A stretch of DNA of 32,000 bases. Origin: Candidatus Lokiarchaeum ossiferum (lineage in GTDB: Archaea; Asgardarchaeota; Lokiarchaeia; Sigyniarchaeales; Promethearchaeaceae). Shown here piece by piece: positions 2,868 to 32,000 of this stretch. A model generated the notes under the pieces. The model saw only the letters and a program-made list of their open reading frames with translations, was not told the DNA's origin and searched no databases. Numbering within the stretch: the first letter of the stretch is position 1; each line of letters opens with the position of its first letter. Both the position numbers and the translations under genes were made by a program. The stretch lies in the NCBI GenBank assembly GCA_025839675.1, contig CP104013.1:1380001-1412000 (forward strand). The letters are read 5' to 3'.

Positions 2868-2934
2868 ATTACCCTTTAATGAAATTTTGAAACATTTTTA
2901 AGAATTCACTTCTTAAATGCTATGCTGATAAGAT

Positions 2935-15027: not shown

Positions 15028-15100
15028 TTACTGCCTCCATTGTTCGGGCAAAAAACTTATGATCCAAATATTTTTTTTAACTCTACCTCCGCTTTTAATC

Positions 15101-15862
15101 ATGAATACTGAACATTCAAAATTTTCTCAAAATTTCCAAGTAAGATATGGGGAAGTTAATCAATCGGGGCAACTGATGATTCACCACTTATTTAATTATA
15201 TGCAAGAAATTGCATTCAATCATGCAGATGCACTAGCCAATACTATAGAGGGAAAATCACACTTTGATTTTGCAGTTGTATGGACTAGGATGAAGTTAGA
15301 AGTGGAAAAAATCCCAAATTGGAAAGAAAATCTAACCATTTCAACATGGATCTCACCTTTAAAAGACCAACAACGTTTTGCGTTTAGAAATTTTGCAATT
15401 TTCAATCAATCCGGCCAAAAAATAGGAAAGGGGTATGGTTCGTTACTCTTTTTTGATTTAAAACAAAGAAAAGCCGTAGGAGTACCAAAGGATGTTGAGA
15501 ATTATCCGACTCATGAAGAACCAGGGGATTCCCATCATTTTTCACAAATTGATATTAATGTTTCCGAGAAGAAGGATACTTCATTTTCTACGAATTTTCA
15601 AGATCTTGATATTTATCGTCATGTGAACAATGTCAAATATATTGAGTGGGCATTTAATGAAGTGAAACCAGAAATATATAAATTATATATTCCTTCTTCA
15701 GTAGAAATAAACTTTCTAAAAGAACTACGACTCGGAGAGTCAGTCTGTGTCCAAACGGAATATCTTGAGGGAAGCTCTGAATTGTTAATTAAACATTTAA
15801 TCTATAAAGAAGAAAGTGGAGTCAAAATTGCCCAACTTCAGACATCTTGGAAAAAAAAATAG
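15101..15862 (+). CDS. Acyl-ACP thioesterase-like double hotdog protein
   Basis: VRYGEVNQSGQLMIHHLFNYMQEIAFNHADAL and DLDIYRHVNNVKYIEWAF match the two halves of the acyl-ACP thioesterase (FatA/B-like) fold. I placed the start at Met31 (15101) because the tracked start at 15011 overlaps the previous gene. Confidence 0.7.
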   Translation: MNTEHSKFSQNFQVRYGEVNQSGQLMIHHLFNYMQEIAFNHADALANTIEGKSHFDFAVVWTRMKLEVEKIPNWKENLTISTWISPLKDQQRFAFRNFAIFNQSGQKIGKGYGSLLFFDLKQRKAVGVPKDVENYPTHEEPGDSHHFSQIDINVSEKKDTSFSTNFQDLDIYRHVNNVKYIEWAFNEVKPEIYKLYIPSSVEINFLKELRLGESVCVQTEYLEGSSELLIKHLIYKEESGVKIAQLQTSWKKK

Positions 15863-15923
15863 TCAATAATTAAACCCTTTTTTGTTATTATTCAGCATTT
15901 TGTCTCCATTTTGTTGGTTTAGT

Positions 15924-17264
15924 TTATGATGAAGAGATAATTTCATCCTTAGAAAGGATATATTGATTCGCAATTTGTAAAGAAGCGAGCACAGCTTCCA
16001 ACTCGATTTTATCAGGGGTATCTTCCATAGTATGATATACTAAATGGTCACGTATCACATGATTTTCCATCCCCAATAATGTTGTAGCTTCAATGCCGTG
16101 CCTTCCAAATTCAGCTGCATCTGTGGCTCCTCCGCCCCAAGCAATCTTTCCCTTAGTGGTGGGATAACCTAATTCTTGAGCAATTTTTTGGCAATCTTCT
16201 ATCATTGAATCCGATAATTTGACAATTTGGTTGAGATCCGATTGTAAAAAGGATAATTCATCTACGTGGTAAATGCTATCCATGTTAAAGAGAAACGTGG
16301 GTACTGATCGCAATTCCTTTAGATGATGTTTTACATAAGCGCGTGAACCTCTAATTCCTGCTTCTTCAGAGTCGAAACTAATAAATACCAATTCAGTGTG
16401 ATTAAGAGGGTTTTTACCGGCTTTTTTGGCAGTTCCATATAATTCCGCCAGTTTGCATGTTATAGCAACAGCAATCATATTATCTCCAGCACCAGGAGAG
16501 ACTTCCTTACTATTGAAGAAATAGAATTGTAAAACTGCGGGAGACCCTACCAGCAAGATTAGGGGTAAGTAATTAACAAACTGTGGAATAGTTCCAGTAA
16601 AAATATCAATTATTGCCCATGCGAGAAGTAATCCATTAATTCCAAAAAATATCAATAGACCCGTAATAATACGAGGGCCGTACCATTTCTGCAACTTTGG
16701 GTTGGCCATAAAATTCATCACCTTGGCACTATCATGATGTCCAGCTACAATTACACGTCTTTTTATTTCATTTTTCGGTGATATCTTCCCAATGATATTG
16801 GTTCCAGATTTTTTCTTGAAAAGAAAATTGAAGGTTTCTTTATATTGAACGAAATGGAGATAAGCATAAAGAGTTGCAAACGAAAAGCCTAAAGCCGCCA
16901 AATAGATCCCAGCTCTCCCAATCAGTAAAAGAGATGAAAAACAAACATATACAATACCAAATATTTTCATGAATGCCATGAAGGAATTTGGACATGTTTC
17001 AAATTGTTCTTTGGTTGTTGTATCGCAATATTTTGATAAATTTGCATGAATAGCATCACCTGCTTTTTCACAAGCAGTAGTTCCGGTCAACCGAGGCCCA
17101 AAATCATCAATGATGTCAGATGTAAAAGTTAAAGCATCCTTAGCATCTGTTGTGTGAATCATGACAGTTGTATCAAGCAATTTTGGATAAATTGTCCGAA
17201 TATTTGTTTTCTGGTCTTCAATATGATTATAAATTTCAGTATGAACAAGAGTTTTGTATGTCAT
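15924..17264 (-). CDS. M28-family metallopeptidase with integral membrane segments
   Basis: M28 zinc-ligand blocks VIVAGHHDS and ISFDSEEAGIRGSRAYV, plus a C-terminal HT..D block. Several hydrophobic helices are present (FGIVYVCFSSLLLIG, IYLAALGFSFATLYAYL, ITGLLIFFGINGLLLAWAII, LPLILLVGSPAVLQFYFF). Confidence 0.8.
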   Translation of the reverse strand: MTYKTLVHTEIYNHIEDQKTNIRTIYPKLLDTTVMIHTTDAKDALTFTSDIIDDFGPRLTGTTACEKAGDAIHANLSKYCDTTTKEQFETCPNSFMAFMKIFGIVYVCFSSLLLIGRAGIYLAALGFSFATLYAYLHFVQYKETFNFLFKKKSGTNIIGKISPKNEIKRRVIVAGHHDSAKVMNFMANPKLQKWYGPRIITGLLIFFGINGLLLAWAIIDIFTGTIPQFVNYLPLILLVGSPAVLQFYFFNSKEVSPGAGDNMIAVAITCKLAELYGTAKKAGKNPLNHTELVFISFDSEEAGIRGSRAYVKHHLKELRSVPTFLFNMDSIYHVDELSFLQSDLNQIVKLSDSMIEDCQKIAQELGYPTTKGKIAWGGGATDAAEFGRHGIEATTLLGMENHVIRDHLVYHTMEDTPDKIELEAVLASLQIANQYILSKDEIISSS

Positions 17265-17511
17265 TCGAAATATTCACATCCTAGTTTTGTAGATTTTTCA
17301 ATTATAAATTGTTATATCTACTTAGTAGATCTAACAAACCTTTTTAAATTTTTGTTCTGCCTACATAGCAAAGTAGGAAAAGAGTCTTGATGAGAAAGAG
17401 TCTTCTTATTAAGTTTTTGGAAAACACCAAAAATTGCACTTATTGTGCAAAATTGGTTAATTAGAATCTCACTAAACAGATTCCTTCCAATTTATAAAAT
17501 GCAAATGAACC

Positions 17512-20214
17512 TTATCTCATTAAAGAAAATAATGATTCAATGGAAATTTTTTTTTGTAATTCCTCAAGATTTTTTGTAATTCCTTGTTTGTTCAATAGAA
17601 TTTTCATTGTTATTACTCGATCCTCATTTGGATGCAAGCTAAAATAATTATCAGAAACAATAAAATCACAATCTTGCACTTTAAAGTGAACATATAGAGC
17701 AATTTTTTTAGCACTGATCTTTATTTGAAAGGAAAAGCGATCTTGTATTTTTTTTTCTTCAGAATTTATTGGAAATAAATCAAAATTAATACCCGGGTTT
17801 TGTAAGGGAAATGATTTAGGTTCCTTAAACAATCGGAAGCCAAATGCTCGATCCCTTAGGGATTCAATTCCATTGAATTGTGTAGAATAGAAAATAACAT
17901 GATTTTTTAATTCACGTCGAGAAATAGAGAGTTGCTTTAGTGTGATTTTGTCTATTAGAATCGAACAGCAAGGGTCCAAATTAACTTCCACTGAATTTTG
18001 ATACTTGATAACCCCTAAATGATTTTGAATAGACCACTTCACAGAGGATTGCACGGGATATTGCAAATCATTGGTACCCCAAATTTCCACTTTGCTATCG
18101 GATTCCTGGATACTAATGAGGAGCGGGGAATAACTACGTTTTACAAAATAATGAGAGGCTTTCCACCGACCATAATAGTCTACCGAAGACCAACTAGCTA
18201 CAGGCCAACAATCATTCAATTGCCAGTAGAGAGAGCCCATACATTCAAAATTTGTTCGATGACGACGCCAATGTTCAATTCCATATTCCAATGCTTCACC
18301 ATGAGTTATTTGGGATAAGATCACTTGACTCTCAAAAGAAGAAGGAATTTTAAAACGCCGCTTCATATATTTTAGAATTTTAGCATTTCCAGCCAAATTT
18401 TTTTGGTGGTTTTCCATAATTGAAGAGAAAAAATCAAGTTCTGAATCAGGACAAAACGATTTAATAGTCTTCAAAGAAGGAAAAGATTCAAATCCATATT
18501 CTGACATAAATCGAGAATTAAATTTTCTGAAAGCAGAAAAAGGAGCACTCTGATGCCAGACTTTCCAAAAATGGGAGTCACCAGTATGAGCTTGATTACT
18601 CTTCAATAAATTCAAGAGGGAACCTTTAAACTTCTTTCCTTCGGAAAAACCATTGGAAGGAGAACTGGGCCAATAGGAGCGAGAAGGATCAAACCTTTCG
18701 GTGAGAAAAGGGAGTTTTTGCTCAAATAATTTGTGATATCCCACTTTAAATTTACGATGGACTTTTTTACCTAAAAGGCGGGATTCAAATGCGAGTAAAG
18801 GCCACAACTGTTCAATTTCATTATTACCACACCATAATGCCAAACTAGGATGATTTCGAATGCGTTTTATATTCTGTATCACCTCAACCTCTACATTCTT
18901 TAGGAATTCATCATTGTAAGGATAAATTGCGCAAGCAAAGGGAAAATCTTGCCACACTAAAATCCCTAATTGATCGCATAAATCATAAAACAAGTCATCT
19001 TCATAGATCCCACCACCCCAGACCCGTAGAAAATTCATATTAGCATCTATCGCCGCATGGAGATTCATTTCATAAAGACCCATCTTTTTTCCACGGGGAA
19101 TGCAACTGTCAATCGGAATCCAATTGGCACCTTTTGCAAAAATTGGAACTCGATTTAGTGAAAAATAAAAGCTTTCACCCCATTGATCGGGTTGTCTGAT
19201 CAATTGCAATTCTCGAATTCCAAATTTCAACTGTCTCTCATCCAATACTAAAGAAGATGAATGAGAACGAATAATTACCTGAAGAGTATACAAAATTTGA
19301 TCTCCAAGCCCAATAATCCACCATAGTTTTGGATTTTGAATAATTAATTGCTGAGAAGAAGATGAAGTTTCAAGTTTTTGCGAAAATTTAGAAATTATTT
19401 GCGAATCTAGAAGAATGCTTGTCTCAATATCCACATCTGCCATATTCTTAAGGGGTATTTTTCCATCAAGTTCAAGATCAATGCAAACTTCAGCTGAATC
19501 TACTACCGGTTGTATTGAAGAAATAGATTTTTTCCAATGGACTTTGTGTTTAGAAAAATTGAGTTTTTGCTTTATGTTGACGGAATTAATTTTGACCTTA
19601 TTCCACGATACGATTTCCACCGGTTGCCAGATACCAATATCTGGAAATTTAGGTCCCCAATCCCAGCCAAAGGAATATTGGCTTTTTCGGAGATAAGGAG
19701 CCCCAGGAATCCCAGCATAACCAGTATTTAATTTAATATGTTCTTTTTCAATTTTCTTCGCAACATACTTTGTTGGACTATGAAATTGGACCTTGAGTTC
19801 ATTTAATCCTTCATGGATGTAATTTTTAATATCGAATTCATATTTACGGAACATATTTTTCGTTGAGCTAACTTCTTTATCATTTAAGTAAATTGTAGTT
19901 ATTGTATCTAAACCATGAAAAATAAGCTCAATTTGTTCAAACAACAGAATTTCATTAGAAATAAAAAATTTTTTAATGAAAATCCAATCTTCTTCAAAGA
20001 CCCATGAAATGTGCCCTTCATTATTACCATAAAAAGGATCTGAAATAATATTTCTTTCCTCTAATACTTCTAATACAGTACAAGGAACATCTATATGAAT
20101 AGGTTTAATGGAAGAGTTCTGAATAGTCCAACCTTTATTTAAGGAGAGATTTTGTGGAGATAATAGGTTCGTTGAAGAAACTGAATTCATCGAATTGATC
20201 TTGATGTTTATCAA
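17512..20214 (-). CDS. Glycoside hydrolase family 2 beta-mannosidase-like
   Basis: 900 aa. Has a GH2 sugar-binding-like N-terminus, the acid/base block LWCGNNE, the nucleophile block FMSEYGFESFP and WQLNDCWP. The start could instead be the Met at 20190. Confidence 0.85.
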   Translation of the reverse strand: MINIKINSMNSVSSTNLLSPQNLSLNKGWTIQNSSIKPIHIDVPCTVLEVLEERNIISDPFYGNNEGHISWVFEEDWIFIKKFFISNEILLFEQIELIFHGLDTITTIYLNDKEVSSTKNMFRKYEFDIKNYIHEGLNELKVQFHSPTKYVAKKIEKEHIKLNTGYAGIPGAPYLRKSQYSFGWDWGPKFPDIGIWQPVEIVSWNKVKINSVNIKQKLNFSKHKVHWKKSISSIQPVVDSAEVCIDLELDGKIPLKNMADVDIETSILLDSQIISKFSQKLETSSSSQQLIIQNPKLWWIIGLGDQILYTLQVIIRSHSSSLVLDERQLKFGIRELQLIRQPDQWGESFYFSLNRVPIFAKGANWIPIDSCIPRGKKMGLYEMNLHAAIDANMNFLRVWGGGIYEDDLFYDLCDQLGILVWQDFPFACAIYPYNDEFLKNVEVEVIQNIKRIRNHPSLALWCGNNEIEQLWPLLAFESRLLGKKVHRKFKVGYHKLFEQKLPFLTERFDPSRSYWPSSPSNGFSEGKKFKGSLLNLLKSNQAHTGDSHFWKVWHQSAPFSAFRKFNSRFMSEYGFESFPSLKTIKSFCPDSELDFFSSIMENHQKNLAGNAKILKYMKRRFKIPSSFESQVILSQITHGEALEYGIEHWRRHRTNFECMGSLYWQLNDCWPVASWSSVDYYGRWKASHYFVKRSYSPLLISIQESDSKVEIWGTNDLQYPVQSSVKWSIQNHLGVIKYQNSVEVNLDPCCSILIDKITLKQLSISRRELKNHVIFYSTQFNGIESLRDRAFGFRLFKEPKSFPLQNPGINFDLFPINSEEKKIQDRFSFQIKISAKKIALYVHFKVQDCDFIVSDNYFSLHPNEDRVITMKILLNKQGITKNLEELQKKISIESLFSLMR

Positions 20215-20323
20215 GATAAATATACTGCTTGCAATTTAAGAGATATCTTAATTGCACAGAAATGTCGCAAACATTCTTAGGTTTCTACCGCCATTTTGAA
20301 GTAAACTTAAACGAAAGATTAAT

Positions 20324-21622
20324 ATGAGCATAGAAGAAAAACAAATAATTATGCATAATCCCTTAAATTCAACACGACGGATTCAAGCATTTGATTTTTT
20401 ACGTGGATTTGCAATAATGATCATTATCTTCGTCCACCGAATTCATTATACTTGGACAGGTATGGAAAATGGAGAGAACTTATTTACGGATCAAGGTATT
20501 GGAGTAGTATTAATAATTGTAACAATCGTTTTTTTTATGATGGCAGGTATTTTTTATGTTGTCTCTGCTACGGTAAATACATACAATTTCTATCACCGTG
20601 TAACCCAAGATCATGAAAAAATTAAACAATACACTAAAATTGGGATCATTTCGGGGTTTTGGTTAATCGGTTTAAATTATATCCAACGGATCTTTTTTAT
20701 GAATGGATTTACAAGTACTTCATCGGGTTTAGAACCGGAATTTCCCATAGGTATCTTTCCAAGTTTATTGAAATACCAAGGAGAATTCACATGGTTTTGG
20801 TCCATCCTTACGCAAACAGGTACCCTTTTTGTATTAGGGATCAATTTAACTATCGTCACAGGAATTCTTTATTTGCTCTTTAAAAATAAGAACAATCAAA
20901 ATATGAAACAAAAATTGCGCATTTTATACATTTTAGGAGTAATGTTCTTTATCTTATCAATTTTCGTTAAATTTTGGGGACATCCTTTTTATTCTCAGTT
21001 GTATTCAGACGAAAATTATTTCGCAGCATTTATTTTGGGGGGGTTTACAACCGAATTTGGTCTCTTTCCGTATCTCAGTTTCGGGTTGTTTGGGAGTTAT
21101 TTTGGATTGTTAATTGCTTCTGAAGAGAATTTACTCATAATTAAAAAGAAATTTCGCAAATCGATTTTGATTTGGTTAGTGATCGGATTAATTGGAGTCG
21201 TCGTTTTTAATACCGATACCGATTTTGGAGATCGTTTGATGACTACTGCAATTAATTGTGTGGGAGTGGCTCTCTTCATGCTTTTCGAATGGATTTGTTT
21301 AAAAATTTATGACTATTCAGCCAAGAAAATAGATGAAACTAAAAGTAAGCCATCAAATGGCATTGTTACTTTCGGAAAAATTAGTTTAACCATTTATATT
21401 TTAGAACCCTTGCTCGCAGAAATATTGATTCTTCCTATAGATTTGATTTTTGGAATAGAATGGAAAACAAATGTCTGGATGGTGGGATTGTTTGGAATTT
21501 TGTGTATAGCTATGTGGATGTTAATAGCCTTTTTCTGGAAAAAGAGCGAATTCATTGGTTCTTTTGAATGGTGTTCCAAAAAACTGTTAAAAAAGAATCG
21601 ACCTATTCAATATAAGGTATAG
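20324..21622 (+). CDS. DUF1624 / heparan-alpha-glucosaminide N-acetyltransferase-like polytopic membrane protein
   Basis: The N-terminal RIQAFDFLRGFAIMIIIFVHRI is the family signature (R..lD.lRG.a...M...H). About 10-11 TM helices. Confidence 0.65.
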   Translation: MSIEEKQIIMHNPLNSTRRIQAFDFLRGFAIMIIIFVHRIHYTWTGMENGENLFTDQGIGVVLIIVTIVFFMMAGIFYVVSATVNTYNFYHRVTQDHEKIKQYTKIGIISGFWLIGLNYIQRIFFMNGFTSTSSGLEPEFPIGIFPSLLKYQGEFTWFWSILTQTGTLFVLGINLTIVTGILYLLFKNKNNQNMKQKLRILYILGVMFFILSIFVKFWGHPFYSQLYSDENYFAAFILGGFTTEFGLFPYLSFGLFGSYFGLLIASEENLLIIKKKFRKSILIWLVIGLIGVVVFNTDTDFGDRLMTTAINCVGVALFMLFEWICLKIYDYSAKKIDETKSKPSNGIVTFGKISLTIYILEPLLAEILILPIDLIFGIEWKTNVWMVGLFGILCIAMWMLIAFFWKKSEFIGSFEWCSKKLLKKNRPIQYKV

Positions 21623-21712
21623 AACAAATTAATTTGAATTAGAAAATGAAGAAATTATTGACTTCATTTAGAAAAAATGAATTGAAAAATTAACTTGGTA
21701 ATATTGATTGTT

Positions 21713-22441
21713 TTATTTTTTCTTTTTACTCGCCAATTTACTCAGAATCATGAAAATTCGTAGCACCATTCCAACAAAATCGAAGAAAATATCAATAACA
21801 GCCATCATCCAATAACCACGTTTTATTTTCCCCGGTAAGGTTGCGGCATCAAAGACCATCACTCCAAATAAATAGCCAAACATTAGTAAATCGACGACAA
21901 TATTATTTTCTCCTTCTCCAAATATGGCAATTATAACTACTTCTAACACTCCAAATAGAATACCAAATAACAAGAAATACCAACAATAATGTTTAGAAAT
22001 CTTGTCTTTCAATAAAATGCCCAAGGCCATGGCTCCACCAGTGGCAAAAACACCAATTAATGCACTCGTTATGAAAAGACTTCGGGTTAATTCTTCACCC
22101 AAATCTTCCGCTACAAAGGATACAACAAACGACAACAAAACTCCAGATCCCAGTGCAGAAATGAAGAACAATACCATGGCAATTAAATTAACTCGTAAGA
22201 AAGTAAAAATCATGAGTAAAATCCAAACACCTACAAACACACATAATGCAATGATTATTTGAGGAATGGAAAAAGTGGTGAGATCTAAAGCAGGAGCACC
22301 GAACAATCCACTGAAATAGAGAGTAGATAATAACCAAAGAAGTGCTGCAACAAACATCGTTGGTAAAACTTTAGAATAAAATTCGTTGTCAAGAGCAGGT
22401 TGTTTACCTTTTACATGACCAAAATAATAAAAATTTCCCAT
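21713..22441 (-). CDS. Bax-inhibitor-1/YccA (TMBIM)-like membrane protein
   Basis: 242 aa, about 7 TM. The C-terminal MAVIDIFFDFVGMVLRIFMIL followed by a Lys-rich tail resembles the BI-1 family C-terminus. Confidence 0.6.
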   Translation of the reverse strand: MGNFYYFGHVKGKQPALDNEFYSKVLPTMFVAALLWLLSTLYFSGLFGAPALDLTTFSIPQIIIALCVFVGVWILLMIFTFLRVNLIAMVLFFISALGSGVLLSFVVSFVAEDLGEELTRSLFITSALIGVFATGGAMALGILLKDKISKHYCWYFLLFGILFGVLEVVIIAIFGEGENNIVVDLLMFGYLFGVMVFDAATLPGKIKRGYWMMAVIDIFFDFVGMVLRIFMILSKLASKKKK

Positions 22442-22737
22442 AATGTGAGCTAATTCTTGGAAAATTTAATTGTTTTGATCGCTGAAAAGAAGGAAAGAAT
22501 TGAATTCCCCTTATTGGAAAAGAGACATCATTTATGTTTTTTAAACTATAAAAAAAATGGAATAAGAAGACCTTTTCTTAAAATATGCTATAATCCTTTC
22601 AAAACACATTTTTTTCCATTAACATACTCAATTGAAAGATAATTTTTATTTTTAGATTAAAGCAAACTTTGAAAAGCTTAATATTAATAATATAAATATC
22701 AGAGAAACGATTGATTTTTTTTGGTGTAAATTAACTC

Positions 22738-24108
22738 ATGTTATTTGAAAAATCTACTGTCCATTTTGAAATTACTTCTGAGTGCAACCATCGATGTATT
22801 TTTTGTTACAATCAACATCAGGTTTTTGACAATTCAAAAAATAAAGAATACATATCTTTCGATTTTTATAAGCAAATTATCGACAAGTTCGTTGAACTGA
22901 AAGTTAAGAATGTTATTATCACCGGTGGAGAACCATTTCTCCACCCTGAAATTCTTCCTTTTATTGAATATGCAAAAAAAAGGAAATTAGATATAAGTAT
23001 CAATACAAATGGATCGCTTTTAACACCTGAAATTAACCAATTTTTAGCGAACTACAAAATTCGCCTACTTGTTTCTCTCCATGGCACTAATTCTTTATTT
23101 GAAAAATTAGTTCAAGTTAAAACCTTTGATCGAGTTCGAAAAAATCTAATTGATGCACGCAAAAATTATAATCTAAATATTTCTCTACAATTTGTTCCAA
23201 TTAAAATTAATTTCCATCATATCCGAGAAGTTGCACAATTTGCAAAAGAGTTGGGTTGTTATCTACAAGTAGGAAGATACACGGATCCTTGTGGAATATC
23301 AGAAAGTACTTCATCCTTTGGATTAACGATTAAAGAATACCATTCTCTTTTCAATGAAATTCTCAAAATAAAAAGAGAATTAAAAGTACCCATTGGACTC
23401 GGAAATGGTATCCCATTTTGTATGATTGATGAAGAAAACCTCTCCAATGACATCCTGAATCTATTTAATCGCTGTGGGTGTTCTTTGGGAAAATCAATTT
23501 GGGCTTTGAGTCCAGAAGGTAACATTCGGGCTTGTCCGCAATTAAGTAATACAATTGGAAATATATTAACGGATTCTATCAAAATCCTATCTCAAAAAAT
23601 TGAAGATTTATTTAATTCATCAGTAATCACTCCCGAAATATGTCAAGATTGCGGAATTCGAATACTTTGTTGTGGAGGATGCAGAGCAAGCGGATTGGTA
23701 AGAAATGGTGCAATTAATTCATTTGATCCCCTATTTCCTCTTGATGAAGAGAGGCGAAATAAATCAATTGCATTAATTAAGCAAAAAATCAAAATTCTTG
23801 GAGAGAAAGAGAACCAATCATTATCAAGTGAATTTGATGAACAAAGCATTTTGACTGCAAATCGAGAGCTATTTCGAAGAAATTTAAATAGTTACGTTAT
23901 TTTAAGAGGATTTGGAAAAAATGGATTCATATATAAAGAGTTAAATGAATCTGCCTTGGCGATATTGAATGAATTCAAACATCCAAGTTCTGTGAAATCA
24001 GTTCTAATAAAATTAAGCAAAGATTTCTCTATTGGAATCGAAGAAATTAGAGGAGACGTTTTCAATTGCATTGAAAATTTTCTTAAAGCAGACATTTTAC
24101 AATTCTGA
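22738..24108 (+). CDS. Radical SAM enzyme with a full SPASM domain and a PqqD-like C-terminal extension (putative peptide maturase)
   Basis: CX3CX2C at C16/C20/C23 (CNHRCIFC, nt 22783-22806) and the GGEPFL SAM-binding motif. The SPASM signature is read exactly: C248-X12-G-X4-C266, then C302-X2-C305-X5-C311-X3-C315 (nt 23473-23682). Residues ~385-456 resemble PqqD/RRE. Confidence 0.9.
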   Translation: MLFEKSTVHFEITSECNHRCIFCYNQHQVFDNSKNKEYISFDFYKQIIDKFVELKVKNVIITGGEPFLHPEILPFIEYAKKRKLDISINTNGSLLTPEINQFLANYKIRLLVSLHGTNSLFEKLVQVKTFDRVRKNLIDARKNYNLNISLQFVPIKINFHHIREVAQFAKELGCYLQVGRYTDPCGISESTSSFGLTIKEYHSLFNEILKIKRELKVPIGLGNGIPFCMIDEENLSNDILNLFNRCGCSLGKSIWALSPEGNIRACPQLSNTIGNILTDSIKILSQKIEDLFNSSVITPEICQDCGIRILCCGGCRASGLVRNGAINSFDPLFPLDEERRNKSIALIKQKIKILGEKENQSLSSEFDEQSILTANRELFRRNLNSYVILRGFGKNGFIYKELNESALAILNEFKHPSSVKSVLIKLSKDFSIGIEEIRGDVFNCIENFLKADILQF

Positions 24109-24163
24109 TCTCAATTTCTTGTCGTAATCCGTAGACACTCAAAAAATAAAAACAATTTTTATA

Positions 24164-25669
24164 TCAAATTGATTTTTCATTTTGTATCAAATAATCCCGA
24201 TTACCAAGATATGTTAAAAATTCACTCAAATCCGCTTTAACTTCACCCATTTCATTTTCTTCCAAATCAAAAGATTGTTTCAACTGAGTCAAAATATCAG
24301 CTAATGACCAGTAATTTAATTCAAGTAAAATTTTAGTAATTTCATATGCAACATCATTAATGAAAAAAGCGGTTTGTTTTTTCTCATCTAAAAAATAATA
24401 TGAATTTTCATTAACATGTTTTAATAACACATGTTTTGGAAAGGAATATGTTTGCGTTTCTATTAATTTGAAATCTATATTCTCATCAGAGTAATTAATT
24501 TCAGATTCACTATTGAATATGGTTTTGGGAATTTGTTGTTTTCCCGATATGATTAAATATACGTCCCGAATAATGTTATTAATATCGCCTCCCGACCAAA
24601 TTGAAAGAAAAAAGAATGTAGTGCTTATTACTGCGTAATATACCATTGTAAACAAAAATAACTCAAATTTTTCGTTGAAAAGATTTCCACTTCTAACTGA
24701 AATAATTGAGAGCACTGTGGGAAATAAAATAACGAGATTACACCACAAGGTACCCATTATAGCGATTTTTATTCTTTCTTTTGGAGTAAAAAGCAAAAGT
24801 GGAATTTGAACAGTCTCAACATTAATAAGAGAATTCAACTTTGAAATATAAGACCCAAATCCGCCATACATTTTGGCAGCAATTAAATGACCCCATTCAT
24901 GAAATATGGAAAGAAATAGAGATAAAAGTAAATAGGTTGAGTAATTAAAAGCATCAGAAAAAATATATGAAATTGAAATTGGATTGTTCGTAAAAAACCA
25001 AAAAAATTCCAAAAATGTTGCAGAAAGTAATAATATCCAATAGAGATTCTTAATTTTTTTTTTCCAGAAAAGTTCTGATAAATAATTGAATAGTTTTGTT
25101 CTAAAAGTCATTCGAAAATGAATTGCCAGAATAAGGTTTGGAGAAACACCTAAGATATTGAAAGCGGGCCAATCTTTGTTAATTGCGAATTCTATTAATT
25201 GATTTAAAATAAACCAGCTATTTCGAGTTATTAAGAAAAGAGATACAAATGATAAGGAAAATATCCGTTTATCAAAAGAATAAATTACATATAAACCAAT
25301 ACCAAGTAAAATTGAAAAGAAATGAAGAAGGAGGACAAGAATTCTTTTATTTTTCTTTAAAAGGATAGAATCAATATGAATAAGAATTTGAGAATAAGAT
25401 AAAATCGACCAAACTCCATAAATAGAGAATAGGATATTTTTGATTTTAAACGAATTATCCCCAATAGAAAGCACTTTATCCAAAAAGATTTGAGACATTA
25501 TGAAAAAAACTAAAAATCCAAGCAATGAAAATGCGAATATTCTCCAAAAGGGAGGTTTAATTATCTTCTTAAACTGAAAAAGACCATAAAACCACAACAT
25601 AATTGGAATTGTGAACGCAAAAGAGGAGAAAATGAAAATACGGAAAATTATATATAATCCAGAATCCAT
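24164..25669 (-). CDS. Polytopic membrane protein with an HExxH motif (M50/site-2-protease-like) and a C-terminal PqqD-like soluble domain
   Basis: 501 aa, about 10 or more hydrophobic helices. HEWGH at residues 257-261 (nt 24887-24901) sits at the end of a hydrophobic helix. The C-terminal ~90 aa are hydrophilic with a PqqD-like pattern (FFINDVAYEITKILLELNYWSLADILTQLKQSFDLEENEMGEVKADLSEFLTYLGNRDYLI). Confidence 0.6.
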   Translation of the reverse strand: MDSGLYIIFRIFIFSSFAFTIPIMLWFYGLFQFKKIIKPPFWRIFAFSLLGFLVFFIMSQIFLDKVLSIGDNSFKIKNILFSIYGVWSILSYSQILIHIDSILLKKNKRILVLLLHFFSILLGIGLYVIYSFDKRIFSLSFVSLFLITRNSWFILNQLIEFAINKDWPAFNILGVSPNLILAIHFRMTFRTKLFNYLSELFWKKKIKNLYWILLLSATFLEFFWFFTNNPISISYIFSDAFNYSTYLLLSLFLSIFHEWGHLIAAKMYGGFGSYISKLNSLINVETVQIPLLLFTPKERIKIAIMGTLWCNLVILFPTVLSIISVRSGNLFNEKFELFLFTMVYYAVISTTFFFLSIWSGGDINNIIRDVYLIISGKQQIPKTIFNSESEINYSDENIDFKLIETQTYSFPKHVLLKHVNENSYYFLDEKKQTAFFINDVAYEITKILLELNYWSLADILTQLKQSFDLEENEMGEVKADLSEFLTYLGNRDYLIQNEKSI

Positions 25670-25742
25670 TGTAGTGAAACCGATCTCCCACGTTCATAAT
25701 ATTTTGATAAAATTATAGAAAAAAAGTTATTGATTTCTTGGG

Positions 25743-25967
25743 TTATTCTCCAGAAACATCCCCAGGAATATCGAAACAATCGCAATCACAATTACAATAA
25801 CAATCATCACAATTGGCCGAATAACAATCACAATTTGCTGGGTCTTGGCAGTTGCTTGCATAACAAACTCCAGAAACTTTGCCACCTGGGTCATTCATCT
25901 GACAATCACATGAAGGATTAAATTCTGAAATTATATTACGAATTACGGGTTTTGTCCACTTCTTCAT
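25743..25967 (-). CDS. Cys/Asp-rich small peptide, candidate RiPP precursor
   Basis: 74 aa: MKKWTKPVIRNIISEFNPS then a core with 12 Cys and 10 Asp (CDC, CYC, CNCDCDC). GGAG lies about 11 nt upstream of the ATG. It sits directly upstream of, and co-oriented with, the HExxH membrane protein gene. Confidence 0.7.
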   Translation of the reverse strand: MKKWTKPVIRNIISEFNPSCDCQMNDPGGKVSGVCYASNCQDPANCDCYSANCDDCYCNCDCDCFDIPGDVSGE

Positions 25968-26130
25968 TTTTTCTTATTCTCCAAGATTTTTCGAATTAAA
26001 AATCTGTTTATACTATCAAAATAATGAATTGTCTATATAAAATTTTTCCAACATTAGTACATATTTAGGGCATTTTTATAGCTTCCAAATACATTTTTAA
26101 TTTTGAAAAATTAATAATAGTGATTTTAAA
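25968..26130. promoter_or_regulatory. Divergent promoter region between the precursor gene (minus) and the TPR gene (plus)
   Basis: 163 bp of AT-rich spacer with several TATA-like elements (CTATATAAAA at 26032-26041, TTTTTATA at 26073-26080, GTTTATAC at 26006-26013). Assigning them to either gene is a guess. Confidence 0.3.
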
Positions 26131-28392
26131 TTGTTAACTGATTTTGATGGACACAAGATTCGTTTTTCAAATGAATTAAAAAAAAAAATTGAACTGAAAT
26201 ATAAAGATATAGTGAATCATGATATCACACACCAATATCGCGAGAAATTTAATATATTATCCGATTTGACACTTCAAAATAAACGAGATGAAACCGAAAT
26301 TGCATATTTAAAGGCAAAATATGCATATATCTTGTATGAAATGCAGTATTTTGAATCCAATCCGCATTTTAAAAATAGAAAAGTAATCTTCCAAAATGAT
26401 AATATTGGTGAATTAATTTGGTATCTAACTTATTTATGTTCCAGAAAAATTACTCCAGAGGTAGACGAAATTCATGATTATTTAAAAGAGAAATTGGAAC
26501 ATTCAACAGATAACCTTCTTAATCTTGAATTTCTATATCCTCATTTCTTAATATTAAGTGATCAGCGTAAATTTTCACATGTATTTGATGAATTTTTGAA
26601 TATCAAGTCGGAAATTCTTCTTCTTTCAGAAGAATTTAGATTAACAAAAGCATTGCTCTATTCTTGTGCAATAAATATTATACCTTATATTGAAAAAGAA
26701 TCAGAAATAATCGATGAAATTTTTGTTGAAATAGAAAAAGTAATTAATTTTCAAAAAGACCTTTTTGGATATTGTGAGATTCAAAGATATTTAATTAGTA
26801 CAGAATTATTATCTCCTGAAAAAGAGGAAACTAATCGCAATCAACTCAAAAAATTACTTTCTTATTATTTTGGGATTGGAACTAAGCTCATTCAAATGAA
26901 AGTTACAATGAATTTAGGACTTCTTGATTATTATAATGAGAATTATATTTCGAGCGTGAAATATCAACAACAGGCACTTCAATTAGCCAAAGATTTAAAA
27001 AGTATTAAATTTCAATCTTATATATCCTATTTGACTGGATTATCACTAGTTAAGTTGGGGAATTATTTGGAAGCTAAGCAACATTTTTTATCAGCTCTGG
27101 AAGGAAATCGTCTTCAAGCAAATGAAATTCAAATAATTAATATTTTCGAAGCATTAGGAAATCTGTCAGAAGATATAGGTCAATTTGATAAGGCAGAAGA
27201 ATTTTATAATTCCGAAATTGAACTTGCTAAAAAACATAATGTTTTATCATCTATTGCTGCAGGGAACTTGAATTTAGCAATATTAAAGCTTTCTCAAGGA
27301 AATCTTTTAGAAGTCTTGAATTTATTACAGGAAGCAAATCATTATGCTCAAGATACATCCATGGATAATTTTATTCTTTCCATTATTAGTTATCAAGCTA
27401 AACTTTCATTTATGCAGGGAAATTATCAGAAATCATTAACATTATTAGAAAAAGGAAAAGAAAAATTAAACCAAAATTCATCTCCCGATGAATTGGCAAA
27501 TTTTTACCTTCATGAAGCAGAAATACGATTGGGAATTGGTCAAGTTAATATTTCAAAAAAAATCTTACTCTCAGTTTACAATAAACAAGTTCGGGGGGAA
27601 TCATTATCAACTTTTAGTGAAATTAATGAAATTCTTGGATCAATTCATTTCTTTGAAAATAAAACAGATGAAGCAAAAAAAATACTCATCGAAACTTATG
27701 AAAAATTGGCAGAAAAGGGATCTTTTGGAGGTATTTTCCAATCAGTTTTGGTACATCTCCTCGAATTTTGCATGATTAACAAAGATGAAAAAGAATACAA
27801 CAATTGGAAAGACATAATGATGAGCCATTTAGGTACCCATAAAATTTCATTGTTATATGGAAATCAAATAAAACTCATATTTTTAGAATTAATGCATAAA
27901 TACAATTCAAATTCCTTAGATCTCACAGCCTTAAATGATTTTGAGACCACTTTGAAAGAAAAACAATTTCTAAATCTTAAGTATAAAGTGAACTTGCTCA
28001 AAATTCGTTTTTTAGTTGACTCAGATCAAATCAAACAAGCGCTTGGTGTTATTCAACAGCTTGAATGCTCAATCGCAGACAATCCTAACTTAATCTTCGA
28101 AATTGAAATAAAACTCATTCAAGGATTAATATTAAGTCGAGATTTTGATTTTGAACAAGCACGAGAAAAAATATCTTCATTAACAAGTTTATTACAAAAA
28201 TATAATCTGAAAAGATATATTGATCGGCAACAAGAAATCACCGATTTAATTCAAAAACATTGTGAATTATTTTCAGATATATATGATTTCTCTGAGCAAA
28301 AAGACACTCAAAATAGGCAAAAAGAAAATTTGAAGGTACCATTGAATGTTATTCATCAATATTTAGATGAATCTATTAAGATCTTATCTTAG
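26131..28392 (+). CDS. Large TPR-repeat protein
   Basis: 753 aa with repeated TPR-like units (NYISSVKYQQQALQLAKDL, GNYLEAKQHFLSALE, GQFDKAEEFYNSEIELAKK, QGNLLEVLNLLQEANHYA, QGNYQKSLTLLEKGKE). I found no Walker A motif. The start is TTG at 26131, and the first in-frame ATG is at 26341. Confidence 0.7.
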   Translation: MLTDFDGHKIRFSNELKKKIELKYKDIVNHDITHQYREKFNILSDLTLQNKRDETEIAYLKAKYAYILYEMQYFESNPHFKNRKVIFQNDNIGELIWYLTYLCSRKITPEVDEIHDYLKEKLEHSTDNLLNLEFLYPHFLILSDQRKFSHVFDEFLNIKSEILLLSEEFRLTKALLYSCAINIIPYIEKESEIIDEIFVEIEKVINFQKDLFGYCEIQRYLISTELLSPEKEETNRNQLKKLLSYYFGIGTKLIQMKVTMNLGLLDYYNENYISSVKYQQQALQLAKDLKSIKFQSYISYLTGLSLVKLGNYLEAKQHFLSALEGNRLQANEIQIINIFEALGNLSEDIGQFDKAEEFYNSEIELAKKHNVLSSIAAGNLNLAILKLSQGNLLEVLNLLQEANHYAQDTSMDNFILSIISYQAKLSFMQGNYQKSLTLLEKGKEKLNQNSSPDELANFYLHEAEIRLGIGQVNISKKILLSVYNKQVRGESLSTFSEINEILGSIHFFENKTDEAKKILIETYEKLAEKGSFGGIFQSVLVHLLEFCMINKDEKEYNNWKDIMMSHLGTHKISLLYGNQIKLIFLELMHKYNSNSLDLTALNDFETTLKEKQFLNLKYKVNLLKIRFLVDSDQIKQALGVIQQLECSIADNPNLIFEIEIKLIQGLILSRDFDFEQAREKISSLTSLLQKYNLKRYIDRQQEITDLIQKHCELFSDIYDFSEQKDTQNRQKENLKVPLNVIHQYLDESIKILS

Positions 28393-28409
28393 AGAAATTA
28401 CCAAGCGTG

Positions 28410-28419
28410 TTTTTTTTTT
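28410..28419 (+). terminator. T10 run 18 nt after the TPR gene stop
   Basis: GCGTG followed by T10, read directly. Confidence 0.35.
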
Positions 28420-28517
28420 ATACCCACTTTATTCCAATTTATTATGCTACTTCTGGTTTATTCCAATAAAAATATAAAAAAATGGAGGATAAATAGCAAT
28501 TTATATTAATATCTAAT

Positions 28518-29264
28518 TTAAGAAAAACAAAAATCAGTTAACTGAGAGATATTTTTTTGAAAGATAGCATTATCCTTCAAAATGTGTTTTCCCTGAGCAA
28601 TATTGAAAGCGATTTCGTCATAATAATTCATATAAAGAAAATTAGCAATCTTCATTTCCGATGAAAATTTTTTTTCCCAATTCGAAATTAGGCCACCCAT
28701 TGCATCTACATTTGGAATTTGGTTCCAGAAAACAGCAAATTCTTTTCCTAAAGCAAATGTTTTTTGATAAACATCTTGAACCATCTTTAAAGTACCTTTA
28801 AAATTGTTTAATTCTGCTCGTAAAATTAAAACAATTTTATTTGCGATTAAGCCATTATTAATTTGAATAAATCCCCATCCTGGACTGGAATCAATTATAC
28901 AATAATCAAATTGAGAGGATAGATTTCGTAAGTCACCTAAAAATAATTTCAATCGTTTTCCATGATAAGATTGGTCAACAGAAAAAACTTTATCATTGAG
29001 AGAAAAATTATAACCACAACAAATGACTGAAAATCCATGATTAGTTTTTGAGATTGCCTTGGATAAATCACAATTACCTTCATAATAGTCGTTAAAAGTA
29101 AATTTTGGGTTTACTTTCAAAATTTCAATAAATGAGGGCATACTAATATCAGTTTCAATTAATAATACCCGCTTATTTTTATTTGCTAAATTCGTTGCAA
29201 GGTTAAGTGCTATTAGAGATTTACCAGTTCCCCCGCGAAATGAATGTACTGTTATTCTTTTCAT
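28518..29264 (-). CDS. ParA/MinD-family P-loop ATPase
   Basis: Deviant Walker A HSFRGGTGKS (nt 29217-29243), ETD switch-like LLIETD, and Walker B CIIDSSPG. 248 aa. Confidence 0.8.
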   Translation of the reverse strand: MKRITVHSFRGGTGKSLIALNLATNLANKNKRVLLIETDISMPSFIEILKVNPKFTFNDYYEGNCDLSKAISKTNHGFSVICCGYNFSLNDKVFSVDQSYHGKRLKLFLGDLRNLSSQFDYCIIDSSPGWGFIQINNGLIANKIVLILRAELNNFKGTLKMVQDVYQKTFALGKEFAVFWNQIPNVDAMGGLISNWEKKFSSEMKIANFLYMNYYDEIAFNIAQGKHILKDNAIFQKNISQLTDFCFS

Positions 29265-29405
29265 AAATTTATCACCAAAGAATATTTGATGCGGATTATT
29301 TTTTTAATGATTATTTAAATGGACACAATTGTATGAAGTTGGAGTCAAAATCGGGTTCATTTATTGAGAAATTAATTTATACCTTTATATTCTTATGGGT
29401 ATTGA

Positions 29406-30005
29406 TTATGGAATCCAATATATTTTCTCCCCCTTATAATCCATACTCTCAATATATCCATCAGCTATAAGAAGGTCTAAACCAGCGAGAATAATATTTT
29501 CTTCCCTCTTTGTATTTTCGATTATGTTCTTTAGGGTTATTTTACCAGAATTATCATCTAATTCGACTAGTATCATTGCAATTTCTCGACAGAAAGGATT
29601 TAAATCCGTTAAAATTTCATAAAGATTTTCCCGTAAATTCTTGCGCTCTTTGTCAATTTCATTTAGAAAATTAGAAATGGAAGTATCTACAAATTGCTGT
29701 ATTGTTTTAATGGAATATTTTTTTCGAAATGAAGGAGAATTGATATTTTTCGTTATAGAATTTGCGAGATCCTTCTCTAAATAAATATTATACACATCAT
29801 AGAGAGTATTGGTTTTGCGTATTGCATCGCGAATAACGTTAGTATTTTGAATATTTTGGACGCTTGTACTATTTTTCACAGCAATTTTTTCCTTCAAAGA
29901 TTGAAAGTGCACAAGATCGTCATCCTTCAAATCAATTCGAACAATAATTTTCGAATTTGAGAGGTCTTTATCCACAGGTTTTTTGGCCAATTTTTTCCCT
30001 TCCAT
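29406..30005 (-). CDS. Hypothetical protein, possibly DNA-binding (RHH-like N-terminus, wHTH-like C-terminus)
   Basis: KIIVRIDLKDDDLVHFQSLKEKI ... NVIRDAIRK has a strand-helix-helix pattern. The C-terminal ILAGLDLLIADGYIESMDYKGEKIYWIP resembles a recognition helix plus wing. This is pattern only; I recognise no family. Confidence 0.4.
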   Translation of the reverse strand: MEGKKLAKKPVDKDLSNSKIIVRIDLKDDDLVHFQSLKEKIAVKNSTSVQNIQNTNVIRDAIRKTNTLYDVYNIYLEKDLANSITKNINSPSFRKKYSIKTIQQFVDTSISNFLNEIDKERKNLRENLYEILTDLNPFCREIAMILVELDDNSGKITLKNIIENTKREENIILAGLDLLIADGYIESMDYKGEKIYWIP

Positions 30006-30172
30006 AAATTATGTAAGTAAAGGTCATATTGATATATAAATATGTTACAATAGTACGATAGATTTTTGATGGAAGCATAATTTGTACTAAGTTCATACCT
30101 TTCACCCCATAAGAAAATTACTAAAAAAAAACCAATTAACTAAAAAAGAGAAAATTTGAGGAATAAAAGAAA

Positions 30173-31456
30173 TTATTCATATCGAATTGAATCAATTGGA
30201 GATAATCTAGCAGCTTTACGTGCTGGGATAAATCCAAAGAAAACTGAAATACAAAGTCCAAATAAAACAGTTTTAATAATCATTAGAAATGAAAAGATAG
30301 GAGAAAATTGGATATCAAGGGGAGAACTATTATTTTCATTACCACTAAGCTGCATATATGCAGAATCCCTATGATTGATGAAATTCGTTGCACCAAATGC
30401 GAATAAAATTCCAAGGGCTACACCCAAGATTGAACCTAAAAACCCAATTAATAAAGATTCAAATAGAAAAATACCAAAAATCTCTCGATCTTTAGTACCG
30501 AGAGCTTTTAAAATCCCAATTTCATGAGTTCTCTCCAGAACGGAAATCGTCATAACATTCATAATTCCAATTCCAGCAACAAGTAATGAGATTCCCCCAA
30601 TCGCAGCAAGAAACAAAGTAATTATTGTTGTTGCAGTATCTATAGTTCCACGCATTTCTTGTAAAGTTATAATGCCGACGTTTTCGCCAAATATTTCTTT
30701 GATTTCCAATGAAACAGTAGAAATAGTTTCATTGGAATCATCAGTGAGCTTAACTAAAATCATAGAACATTCATCAGTTTTGAAAAGTTTTTCAGCAAAA
30801 TGAATGTCCATATAAATTGCATCATCAGAGGGAGCACCAAAAGTATCATATGTTCCGATAAATTCTAAGACTCCACTAATTTGTTGTGAAGAACTATAAA
30901 TTTTTGTTGAGGAAGATGTCCGTTCAGCCCATTGTAACGTCAAATTATCACCAATATTTCCGATCGAACTTTCATTCCCCCAAGGAAAAAAGAAATCATG
31001 ACCCAAAATAATAGAATCATTCAGCGTTTCAAGTCCAGACCCATTTCTGAATTTAAAAGTATTAGGATAAAGCTGAGAATATTTTTCAAAATCAATCCCA
31101 TATACAACCGTCAACACATCTGTGCCATTTAAAGACAAATAAACCTGTTTTTGAAGCACCGCCACAGCAGTTTCTACTAAAGTAAGATTTTCAACCAATG
31201 AAGAATCGTTGATGTATAGGGAGACTTCAAAATCGGTTCGAGACATAATCGAAGTTTGCTTTGCTATAGTTATGGTATCTGTGGAAAATCCTTTATCAAA
31301 TTCATCATTTATGGTTTGTTCCAAACCTTCACCTAAAGCGAGTAAGGAAATAATAGCCGCAATACCAACCACAACACCTATAGTAGTAAACATAGCTCTT
31401 TTTTTACGGCTAATTAATGTAATTCCAGAATATCCAAGGATATCACGAATTTTCAT
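30173..31456 (-). CDS. ABC transporter permease, FtsX/MacB-type
   Basis: An N-terminal TM helix, a ~230-aa extracytoplasmic domain, then three C-terminal TM helices with EIGILKALGTKDREIFGIFLFESLLIGFLGSILGVALG (FtsX-like signature). The start overlaps the upstream ATPase stop by 4 nt (ATGA). Confidence 0.85.
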   Translation of the reverse strand: MKIRDILGYSGITLISRKKRAMFTTIGVVVGIAAIISLLALGEGLEQTINDEFDKGFSTDTITIAKQTSIMSRTDFEVSLYINDSSLVENLTLVETAVAVLQKQVYLSLNGTDVLTVVYGIDFEKYSQLYPNTFKFRNGSGLETLNDSIILGHDFFFPWGNESSIGNIGDNLTLQWAERTSSSTKIYSSSQQISGVLEFIGTYDTFGAPSDDAIYMDIHFAEKLFKTDECSMILVKLTDDSNETISTVSLEIKEIFGENVGIITLQEMRGTIDTATTIITLFLAAIGGISLLVAGIGIMNVMTISVLERTHEIGILKALGTKDREIFGIFLFESLLIGFLGSILGVALGILFAFGATNFINHRDSAYMQLSGNENNSSPLDIQFSPIFSFLMIIKTVLFGLCISVFFGFIPARKAARLSPIDSIRYE

Positions 31457-32000
31457 GTCATCTTCTCTCCATTTTGAGTATCATCTATTATTTGCCCATC
31501 TACAAGATGTAAAATTCGTTCACATTTTTGAGCAATTTCTTGATCATGAGTAACCATTATGGTTGTAATACCTTTTGCGTCATGAATTTTGCGAATTAAA
31601 CTCATTAGTTCATCCCGAGTTGTAGTATCGACATTTCCTGTTGGTTCGTCTAACAATAAAAAAAAAGGTTCTTGACCAAGGGCTCGTGCAATAGCAACGC
31701 GTTGTTGTTCGCCTCCACTTAATTCATTATTTTTATGCTTCACCCGATCTGAAAGCCCTACAAAAGATAATAATTCTAAAGCCTTTTGTTTACGTATCCG
31801 ATGAGAAAAATCACCTTGAACTGTCATAGCAAGTTCAACATTTTGGAGTGCTGTGAAACGAGGAACTAAATTTAAATTTTGAAATACAAATCCTATCCTT
31901 TGTCGTAATTTCGCTAATTCATTCCTCCTCATAATTGAAACCGGAATATTATTTATGAAAATTTCGCCTTCAGTTGGGAGGTCTAGGGCACCAATAAGAT
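31453..32000 (-). CDS. ABC transporter ATP-binding protein (MacB/LolD-like), 5' end beyond the window
   Basis: Q-loop IGFVFQNLNLVP, signature LSGGEQQRVAIARAL, Walker B FFLLLDEPTGNVD and H-loop VTHD. The frame stays open to nt 32000 (…LIGALDLPTEGEIFINNIPVSIM…), so Walker A lies outside the window. Confidence 0.9.
   Translation of the reverse strand, partial: LIGALDLPTEGEIFINNIPVSIMRRNELAKLRQRIGFVFQNLNLVPRFTALQNVELAMTVQGDFSHRIRKQKALELLSFVGLSDRVKHKNNELSGGEQQRVAIARALGQEPFFLLLDEPTGNVDTTTRDELMSLIRKIHDAKGITTIMVTHDQEIAQKCERILHLVDGQIIDDTQNGEKMT

Follow-up and report, generated by a model that had tools for sequence, protein, structure and literature searches.

Can a radical S-adenosylmethionine (rSAM) peptide maturase carry the domain that recognizes the leader of its substrate at its far C-terminus, behind the SPASM domain? 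This question is raised by a 456-amino-acid (aa) protein encoded in a 32,000-nucleotide stretch of Lokiarchaeum DNA (contig CP104013.1, positions 1,380,001 to 1,412,000; hereafter the window, in whose own numbering all coordinates without a locus name are given). It has been reported that in CteB, SkfB, SuiB and TigE the recognition element (RRE) for RiPPs (peptides that are synthesized by the ribosome and modified after translation) precedes the rSAM core, and that PqqE has a separate PqqD (PMC8326336, PMC10878394). A previous sequence-only reading of the window proposed a PqqD-like domain at the opposite end of the 456-aa protein. Our analysis supports, with a probability of roughly 0.72, that this tail is a functional RRE fused in cis, C-terminally, to an rSAM/SPASM peptide maturase, the binding of the leader being what we infer. 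The parts of the gene on which the argument turns are listed with the evidence that defines them (ORF, open reading frame; AF2, AlphaFold2; pLDDT, predicted local distance difference test).

22738..24108, plus strand: 456-aa radical SAM / SPASM / C-terminal RRE maturase gene (ORF list, Pfam, AF2, Foldseek)
22783..22806, plus strand: CxxxCxxC radical-SAM cluster motif, C16/C20/C23 (columns invariant in two family alignments)
23419..23727, plus strand: SPASM region, aa 228-330 (alignment invariants; Pfam SPASM in family members)
23728..23844, plus strand: linker, aa 331-369, with helix 337-351 and short helix 354-359 (AF2 secondary structure and pLDDT)
23845..24105, plus strand: RRE / PqqD-like domain, aa 370-456, strands and then three helices (AF2, Foldseek, Pfam PqqD)

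Fold and position of the C-terminal domain

The tail was modelled on its own (aa 370-456; 18-sequence alignment) at a pLDDT of 96.0 and took the same fold as in the model of the full protein. In both AF2 models strands are found at 371-374, 379-382, 387-393 and 396-402, followed by helices at 404-411, 419-429 and 434-450. Strictly defined, an RRE is a winged helix-turn-helix with three beta-strands and then three alpha-helices, read from N to C terminus (PMC12710340); the modelled tail shows this order, with strand 371-374 as an extra strand N-terminal to the three. When the tail model was compared with the PDB by Foldseek, the top 16 matches were all RiPP recognition domains and included no DNA-binding regulator. 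The best match was the leader-bound TbiB1 (5v1v; E=7.7e-4, probability 1.00, TM score 0.81, root-mean-square deviation 2.2 A over 87 columns), and the others included the leader-bound lasso B1 protein TfuB1 (6jx3; TM 0.75), the N-terminal RRE of TigE (8vpo), PqqD (5sxy), MibB, MccB, MadB, ThcOx and TglHI; several of these neighbours were solved with a bound leader. Judged from these models, the maturase tail is a genuine domain of the RRE/PqqD fold that follows the SPASM region.

Profile searches placed the tail in the same family. Against Pfam PqqD (PF05402), which has a gathering score of 23.4 bits, two orthologues passed at the homologous aa 399-453, P0002 of Candidatus Lokiarchaeum ossiferum (61% identity) with 26.2 bits and the metagenomic P0003 (60% identity) with 27.9 bits; the window tail itself remained sub-threshold, and a distant relative, P0020 (437 aa), scored 35 bits at aa 374-432. 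The NCBI name of P0002 is 'PqqD family peptide modification chaperone'. A profile built from four Loki-type tails (those of the Lokiarchaeum-type maturases) had PqqD 3g2b as its best match among PDB sequences and also listed the lasso PqqD-family chaperone 9x90 and TfuB1, all at weak E values of 0.06-1.9, and the family-tail profile also retrieved a bona fide stand-alone PqqD, P0150 (PF05402 E=6e-19). The PqqD and lasso-PqqD models of NCBIfam matched the window tail weakly (E=0.0015-0.07), and phmmer of the window tail against the PDB gave zero matches. No second match to the tail profile was found within the window, and the tail is the only recognition domain on the maturase.

The rest of the chain is that of an rSAM/SPASM enzyme. 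Residues 11-169 match Pfam Radical_SAM (E=1e-23), and the AF2 model of the full protein (mean pLDDT 89.7, predicted TM score 0.83; 65-sequence alignment) has SuiB, anSME, CteB, SkfB, BlsE, PqqE and TigE as its Foldseek neighbours (E=1e-17 to 1e-12). At E values near 1e-16, SuiB, anSME and CteB matched the radical SAM core, which combines the CxxxCxxC motif with a partial TIM barrel. Long alignments among these core matches were also given by ChlB (9gm3), which we set aside as a C-terminal-RRE precedent on finding no evidence in it for an RRE at that end. In the SPASM region seven cysteines are invariant in the alignments (C228, C248, C266, C302, C305, C311 and C315), the last four forming the canonical CX2CX5CX3C motif. 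At the level of Pfam, the window maturase had no SPASM match at E<=1, and its orthologues were borderline (18.5 and 21.6 bits). Zero further cysteines follow the CX2CX5CX3C motif. A nearly invariant aspartate, D330 (of a DP motif, nt 23725-23727), lies 15 residues past C315, approximately at the position of the last Cys ligand in SPASM enzymes, and by analogy it could be a non-Cys ligand of the second auxiliary cluster, Aux II; such a ligand of Aux II is reportedly present in PqqE.

The start of the maturase ORF is fixed by an upstream stop codon (the ORF lister takes the first start codon after the stop), which makes a 5' extension impossible. Because the ORF cannot be extended upstream and the CxxxCxxC motif begins at residue 16, the maturase has no room for an N-terminal RRE. 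Taken together with the position of C302/C305/C311/C315 ahead of the tail, this bears out the sequence-only reading in its order of domains, as it does in the 456-aa ORF and in the string quoted for residues 385-456, which is identical to ours; its proposal of a PqqD/RRE fold likewise came through both the profile search and the structure search that it had named as tests. The limits of the domain need correction. The C-terminal part of the proposed span 385-456 (23890-24105) stands, and its start does not, since the fold begins at about residue 370 (nt 23845) and the first strands had been cut off. The linker, given earlier as charged and of about 50 aa, proved shorter: the string quoted for it has 34 aa (336-369) and is partly helical, and from D330-P331 to the first strand we count ~39 residues. 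Helix 316-323 and then a loop connect the last SPASM cysteine to the linker helix 337-351, which is confidently predicted; only the stretch ~351-360 is of low confidence. In the alignment the Loki-type maturases carry an insertion of ~14 aa in this linker relative to other family members.

Proposed leader recognition and its alternatives

If the tail is an RRE, a leader peptide should be at hand, and the window encodes a precursor 1.6 kb from the RRE domain of the maturase. The features concerned are these.

25743..25967, minus strand: 74-aa precursor, its leader conserved and its Cys/Asp-rich core variable (ORF list, three-locus alignment), sequence MKKWTKPVIRNIISEFNPSCDCQMNDPGGKVSGVCYASNCQDPANCDCYSANCDDCYCNCDCDCFDIPGDVSGE
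25917-25967, minus strand: conserved leader MKKWTKPVIRNIISEFN of this precursor (three-locus alignment), leader peptide MKKWTKPVIRNIISEFNPS
23923..23943, plus strand: strand beta3 of the tail, aa 396-402, GFIYKEL, predicted leader-pairing edge strand (invariance in four Loki-type tails)

The core of the window precursor is dominated by C-D-C and C-N-C motifs. We aligned it with the precursors of two orthologous loci, that of L. ossiferum (locus L001, 12997-13146; MKKWSKPKITNIITEFNSEGCNTCNCYDGPGGRTLCFRTDCDGPCFVGE) and that of a metagenome contig (L094, 5612-5854; MKKWTKPVIRNIVSEFNPSCDCQAFGPGG...CDCDCFDIPPGMGET). The first 17 residues form the conserved leader, 12 of them being invariant over the three loci in peptides of 49-80 aa, and the consensus is MKKW[TS]KPxIxNI[IV][ST]EFN. 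Three elements beyond this block, C20, C22 and P-G-G (aa 27-29; window nt ~25881-25910, minus strand), are also invariant in all three precursors, which may place the boundary between leader and core, or a cleavage site of the Gly-Gly type, near residue 29 and not 19.

According to published structures of RRE-leader complexes, the leader is paired with beta3 and packed on alpha3 (PMC7470986, PMC11002830). In the four Loki-type tails all seven residues of beta3 are invariant, with RGF..GFIYKELN as the longest invariant run; elsewhere in the fold 0-50% of an element's residues are invariant (alpha2 1/11, alpha3 6/17, beta1 0/4). An invariant beta3, a conserved leader and a variable core make up the pattern that would be expected of a functional RRE-leader pair. 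The genomic context is that of an RRE as well: the tail is fused to a RiPP-type enzyme beside a precursor, and the same holds in seven related loci. A short CxC-rich ORF was found near the maturase in 8/8 loci examined (the window, the two orthologous loci and five further ones). Beyond the Lokiarchaeum type, CxC-rich C-termini are seen in the precursors of L092 (6357-6533; ...GKSCDCDCNCDNCDNGYDCNCNSCDCKNT), L002 from Cryptobacteroides (7313-7507; ...SCDCFTCYSCNTCDSTCD...), L004, an unclassified metagenome contig (2315-2509 and 6870-7055; ...CNVCQQCDVCKISCNS... and ...SCFCDTCYNPCNQPCHGEGPCYSL) and L006 from Nanobdellota (2047-2250; ...TTCCHGNGGCDSCYSNCDM). Leaders differ from subfamily to subfamily, and a CxC- or C(D/N)C-rich C-terminus is present at every locus examined; the precursor peptides of the loci examined gave zero matches to NCBIfam families.

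We propose that the tail would capture the leader as an extra beta-strand on beta3, packed against helix alpha3, and that the ~39-residue linker would let it keep the Cys/Asp-rich core in place at the active site, with the rSAM barrel on one side and the SPASM clusters on the other. There the maturase would install cross-links, most plausibly Cys-derived thioethers, and a second RRE on an adjacent membrane protein with an HExxH motif would use the same leader for proteolytic removal. For the chemistry itself, the composition of the core and the class of the enzyme allow no more than a guess, namely thioethers from Cys to Asp, Asn or other acceptors. As to geometry, the last seven SPASM residues of TigE sit in the groove of its N-terminal RRE (PMC10878394). 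The SPASM C-terminus is thus spatially near the site of an N-terminal RRE, and therefore a C-terminal RRE on a short linker may reach the same geometry; by this analogy, C-terminal fusion is a plausible alternative route to the arrangement of the N-terminal-RRE enzymes. The spatial role of an RRE would then be reachable from either end of the chain, which is useful for the design of chimeric maturases.

Several points weigh against a leader-binding RRE. The match of the window tail (aa 399-453) to PF05402 falls short of the gathering score, with E=0.028 when the complete protein is scored and E=0.0012 (19.5 bits) when the tail is scored by itself, and in a scanned set of 25 family members (23 matches of the tail profile, the window protein and P0020) PF05402 was found at E<=0.01 in two, so that most tails were missed. 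A mixed family-tail profile gave generic winged-helix matches only among PDB sequences (cullin WH-B, Lrs14, MotA and AsnC; E 0.1-0.7), and for this reason the sequence-level RRE assignment of the wider family rests on structure and on a small number of members. The window protein and the 25 family members all stayed below the cut-offs of the curated NCBIfam maturase models. For the window maturase the best overall was NirJ2 (98 bits against a cut-off of 500), with PapB at 72 against 340, SCIFF at 64.5 against 425 and StsB at 57.7 against 625; because all of these fall below cut-off, the maturase, classified by its sequence, belongs to an uncurated rSAM/SPASM subfamily. Furthermore, in SuiB the leader is bound elsewhere and hardly touches the RRE (PMC8326336), and an RRE fold is therefore no guarantee of leader binding. 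Finally, the cluster contains a second PqqD-like domain, on the membrane protein, and a tetratricopeptide repeat (TPR) protein, and either of them may be what actually receives the leader.

The last two of these points, and the sub-threshold score of the window tail, are the main support for an explanation in which the RRE-fold tail is a vestige or has a structural role, and recognition of the leader falls to the barrel or bridging region, or in trans to the RRE of the membrane protein or to the TPR protein; both of these candidate receptors lie inside the same co-varying gene cassette as the maturase. We regard this as unlikely, although it deserves the most attention among the alternatives. 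It does not sit well with beta3, the putative binding strand, being the most conserved element of the tail, or with the model of the tail as a compact domain at very high confidence, and the tail is kept across an archaeal and bacterial family, most of whose loci have no gene for the membrane protein and none for the TPR protein. The tail might instead be a docking or regulatory module that recruits the membrane peptidase or the exporter, or that inhibits the enzyme through its own groove. C-terminal tails do contact the RRE in TigE and SkfB, where a self-regulating role has been proposed (PMC10878394), and the co-variation of four cassette genes would also fit co-adaptation between proteins. 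However, the close structural neighbours of the tail are all peptide-binding RREs, several of them leader-bound, the leader is conserved alongside the tail, and no partner-specific feature of the tail was found, which leaves this explanation quite improbable. That the tail is a DNA-binding winged helix coupling the maturase to transcriptional control, as the structural relation of RREs to winged helix-turn-helix regulators (PMC7470986) and the weak mixed-profile matches noted above might suggest, is rejected as very improbable, given that the order of strands first and then three helices is that of RREs (PMC12710340), that the top 16 Foldseek matches are RREs with zero DNA-binding regulators, and that the tail is fused to an Fe-S enzyme beside a precursor peptide.

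Spread of the architecture and related systems

How widely does the order rSAM-SPASM-RRE occur? A profile of 18 tails was searched against 1.84 billion representative proteins (50% identity clusters) at E<=1e-3 and gave 72 matches, about 25 of which are proteins of 405-458 aa matched at their extreme C-terminus. In the scanned set Radical_SAM was present in 25/25 members and SPASM in 22/25. The tail was absent from 80/80 more distantly related rSAM loci in GTDB genomes, and no further Loki-type orthologues were found in scans of genomes or metagenome contigs, which returned generic rSAM/SPASM genes only (20-36% identity in the best segment). Named family members come from Lokiarchaeum, Nanobdellota/Nanoarchaeota and Cryptobacteroides, and the ten 90%-identity family clusters that we looked up hold 1-3 sequences each. 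The order rSAM-SPASM-RRE thus defines a small uncharacterised family in Asgard archaea, DPANN archaea and Bacteroidales that is tied to CxC-rich peptides; it is unusual and not unique.

The same modules, an rSAM barrel, a SPASM domain with auxiliary clusters and a PqqD-like RRE, are found in CteB (Tte1186), AlbA, SkfB, TigE and SuiB; the tail superposes on the RRE of TigE, and the precursor is Cys-rich as in sactipeptides and ranthipeptides. In those enzymes, however, the RRE stands before the rSAM core, whereas the Lokiarchaeum maturase has it after SPASM on the ~39-aa linker. A PqqD-family domain also serves an rSAM-SPASM enzyme in the pairs PqqD/PqqE, MftB/MftC and StsC/StsB, and PqqD structures (5sxy, 3g2b) are among the neighbours of the tail, but there the RRE is encoded separately and here it is covalently fused. 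TbiB1 and TfuB1, the closest solved structures and both leader-bound, are stand-alone proteins of another RiPP class with 10-15% sequence identity to the tail. In the PapB / freyrasin type, as presumably in Lokiarchaeum, an rSAM-SPASM enzyme works on a core rich in Cys and Asp; the window maturase matches the PapB model weakly. PapB links the Cys sulfur to the Asp beta-carbon.

C-terminal fusion of an RRE to an rSAM enzyme is already known from the proteusin epimerases (PoyD / OspD type), which lack auxiliary clusters (PMC8326336; PMC7470986). By description these differ in having the rSAM cluster only, without SPASM, and an NHLP/Nif11-type leader, whereas the Lokiarchaeum maturase has the full SPASM cysteine set and lies beside a short precursor with a 17-aa conserved leader. 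The sequence-only reading had called the architecture atypical. This is right with respect to the characterized sactipeptide and ranthipeptide synthases and does not hold in the sense of a one-off, given the epimerase precedent and a whole small family. In the full-text literature that could be searched we met with no account of an RRE behind a SPASM domain, which is not proof of absence. Already known, then, are the RRE module and its logic, its C-terminal position in proteusin epimerases and the 'PqqD family' label on an orthologue; the placement of the RRE after SPASM appears to be new. RRE-guided mining usually expects an N-terminal or separate RRE, and a family with a post-SPASM RRE is mostly missed by Pfam PqqD. 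It is easy for such a maturase to end up annotated as 'radical SAM protein', its substrate-binding module going unrecognized.

Family loci often hold two or three rSAM genes (such as L002 8125-9387; L092 6540-7691 and 7965-9035; L006 2875-4101; L004 345-1622). In L002, L092 and L006 just one rSAM gene each bears the RRE tail, and because of this a single RRE may serve several rSAM enzymes there. L004 has two tail-bearing paralogues, each with its own precursor.

The variable cassette and neighbouring genes

Around the maturase the window contains the following features.

22481..28500, no strand assigned: ~6-kb cassette, hypervariable relative to Ca. Lokiarchaeum ossiferum (L001, CP163304.1) (blastn, 100-bp bins)
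24164..25669, minus strand: 501-aa polytopic membrane protein with an HEWGH motif at nt 24887-24901 (Pfam, ORF list)
26131..28392, plus strand: 753-aa TPR protein, the fourth gene of the module (Pfam TPR_MalT, TPR_12; inside the divergent cassette)
30173..32000, minus strand: MacB-type FtsX permease (30173-31456) and an ABC ATPase running off the window end (Pfam FtsX, MacB_PCD, ABC_tran)

L. ossiferum and the metagenome contig L094/L095 have the same genes as the window locus. By blastn, the flanks of the window are 98.5% (12637-22480) and 98.3% (28454-32000) identical to L. ossiferum, and between them the cassette (~22480-28500) is ~65% identical or unalignable, with edges that are sharp at 100-bp resolution. 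It holds exactly four genes, those for the rSAM-RRE maturase, the membrane HExxH/PqqD-like protein, the precursor and the TPR protein; this four-gene block delimits a functional module that co-varies as one. The flanks of L094 are ~80% identical both to the window and to L. ossiferum, and its cassette is 70% identical to that of the window; with the L. ossiferum cassette it shares few alignable segments, at 64-73% identity. Since the window cassette is nearer to the more distant L094 (70%) than to L. ossiferum (~65%), while the flanks are nearer to L. ossiferum, the relationships of the cassette are incongruent with those of its flanks. Over the last ~300 bp of the TPR gene the identity to L. 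ossiferum DNA climbs to 76-84%, which puts a breakpoint of the cassette at or just past the 3' end of that gene.

This pattern suggests allelic replacement or strong diversification. Both are known from bacteriocin and pherotype loci. A wider interpretation, which we offer tentatively and consider doubtful as a whole, is that the rSAM-SPASM-RRE enzymes together with their CxC/CDC-rich precursors form an undescribed RiPP class in Asgard archaea, DPANN archaea and Bacteroidales in which the RRE was independently fused to the C-terminus, and that the Lokiarchaeum module is a strain-variable allelic cassette of a bacteriocin- or pherotype-like kind, whose leader and RREs diverge together. If true, it would be the first sign of an intraspecific polymorphism in peptide-based antagonism or signalling in the closest cultured relatives of eukaryotes. 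The strain-variable cassette gives the locus a value beyond its domain order: a cultured Asgard lineage here has a candidate RiPP pathway of compact size, with three natural precursor/RRE allele sets that are directly usable for specificity swaps.

The maturase gene is convergent with that of the 501-aa membrane protein, upstream of which lies the precursor ORF. The C-terminus of this protein is PqqD-like (aa 427-492, nt 24194-24391), and this one Pfam match, at E=0.002, is what points to a second RRE in the cluster. An hhalign comparison of the rSAM tail profile with the same C-terminus was not significant (probability 2%), and we accordingly make no claim that the two RREs are close paralogues. 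Matches to Peptidase_M50 are weak (E=0.066 for the window protein, E=6e-4 for its L. ossiferum orthologue, which is annotated as hypothetical), and a W[ST]GGD motif is conserved in the protein. Among 5.8 billion proteins it has three homologues only, all in the Lokiarchaeum clade. Its sequence features make it a candidate RRE-guided intramembrane leader peptidase. In L004 (1645-2322 and 6196-6873) and L006 (2250-2912) a soluble HExxH protein of ~220 aa, with weak M1, BSP or SprT-like matches, is encoded directly beside the precursor, and it may be the counterpart of the Lokiarchaeum membrane protein.

The TPR gene is divergently transcribed from the precursor. The weak match of its product to the HaaT model of cyclophane RiPPs, which reaches 23 bits (E=1.8e-5) where the cut-off is 1125, is probably generic TPR similarity only. 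L094 has an extra MarR/HTH-like gene (200 aa; HTH, helix-turn-helix) and a 55-aa ORF between the ParA-like and TPR genes (2183-3046), neither of which insertions occurs in the window or in L. ossiferum. The MacB-type FtsX/ABC pair, a possible exporter by its domain content, lies ~2 kb beyond the TPR gene and outside the variable cassette; of the 181 residues of its ATPase that fall within the window, a single one differs from the L. ossiferum ATPase.

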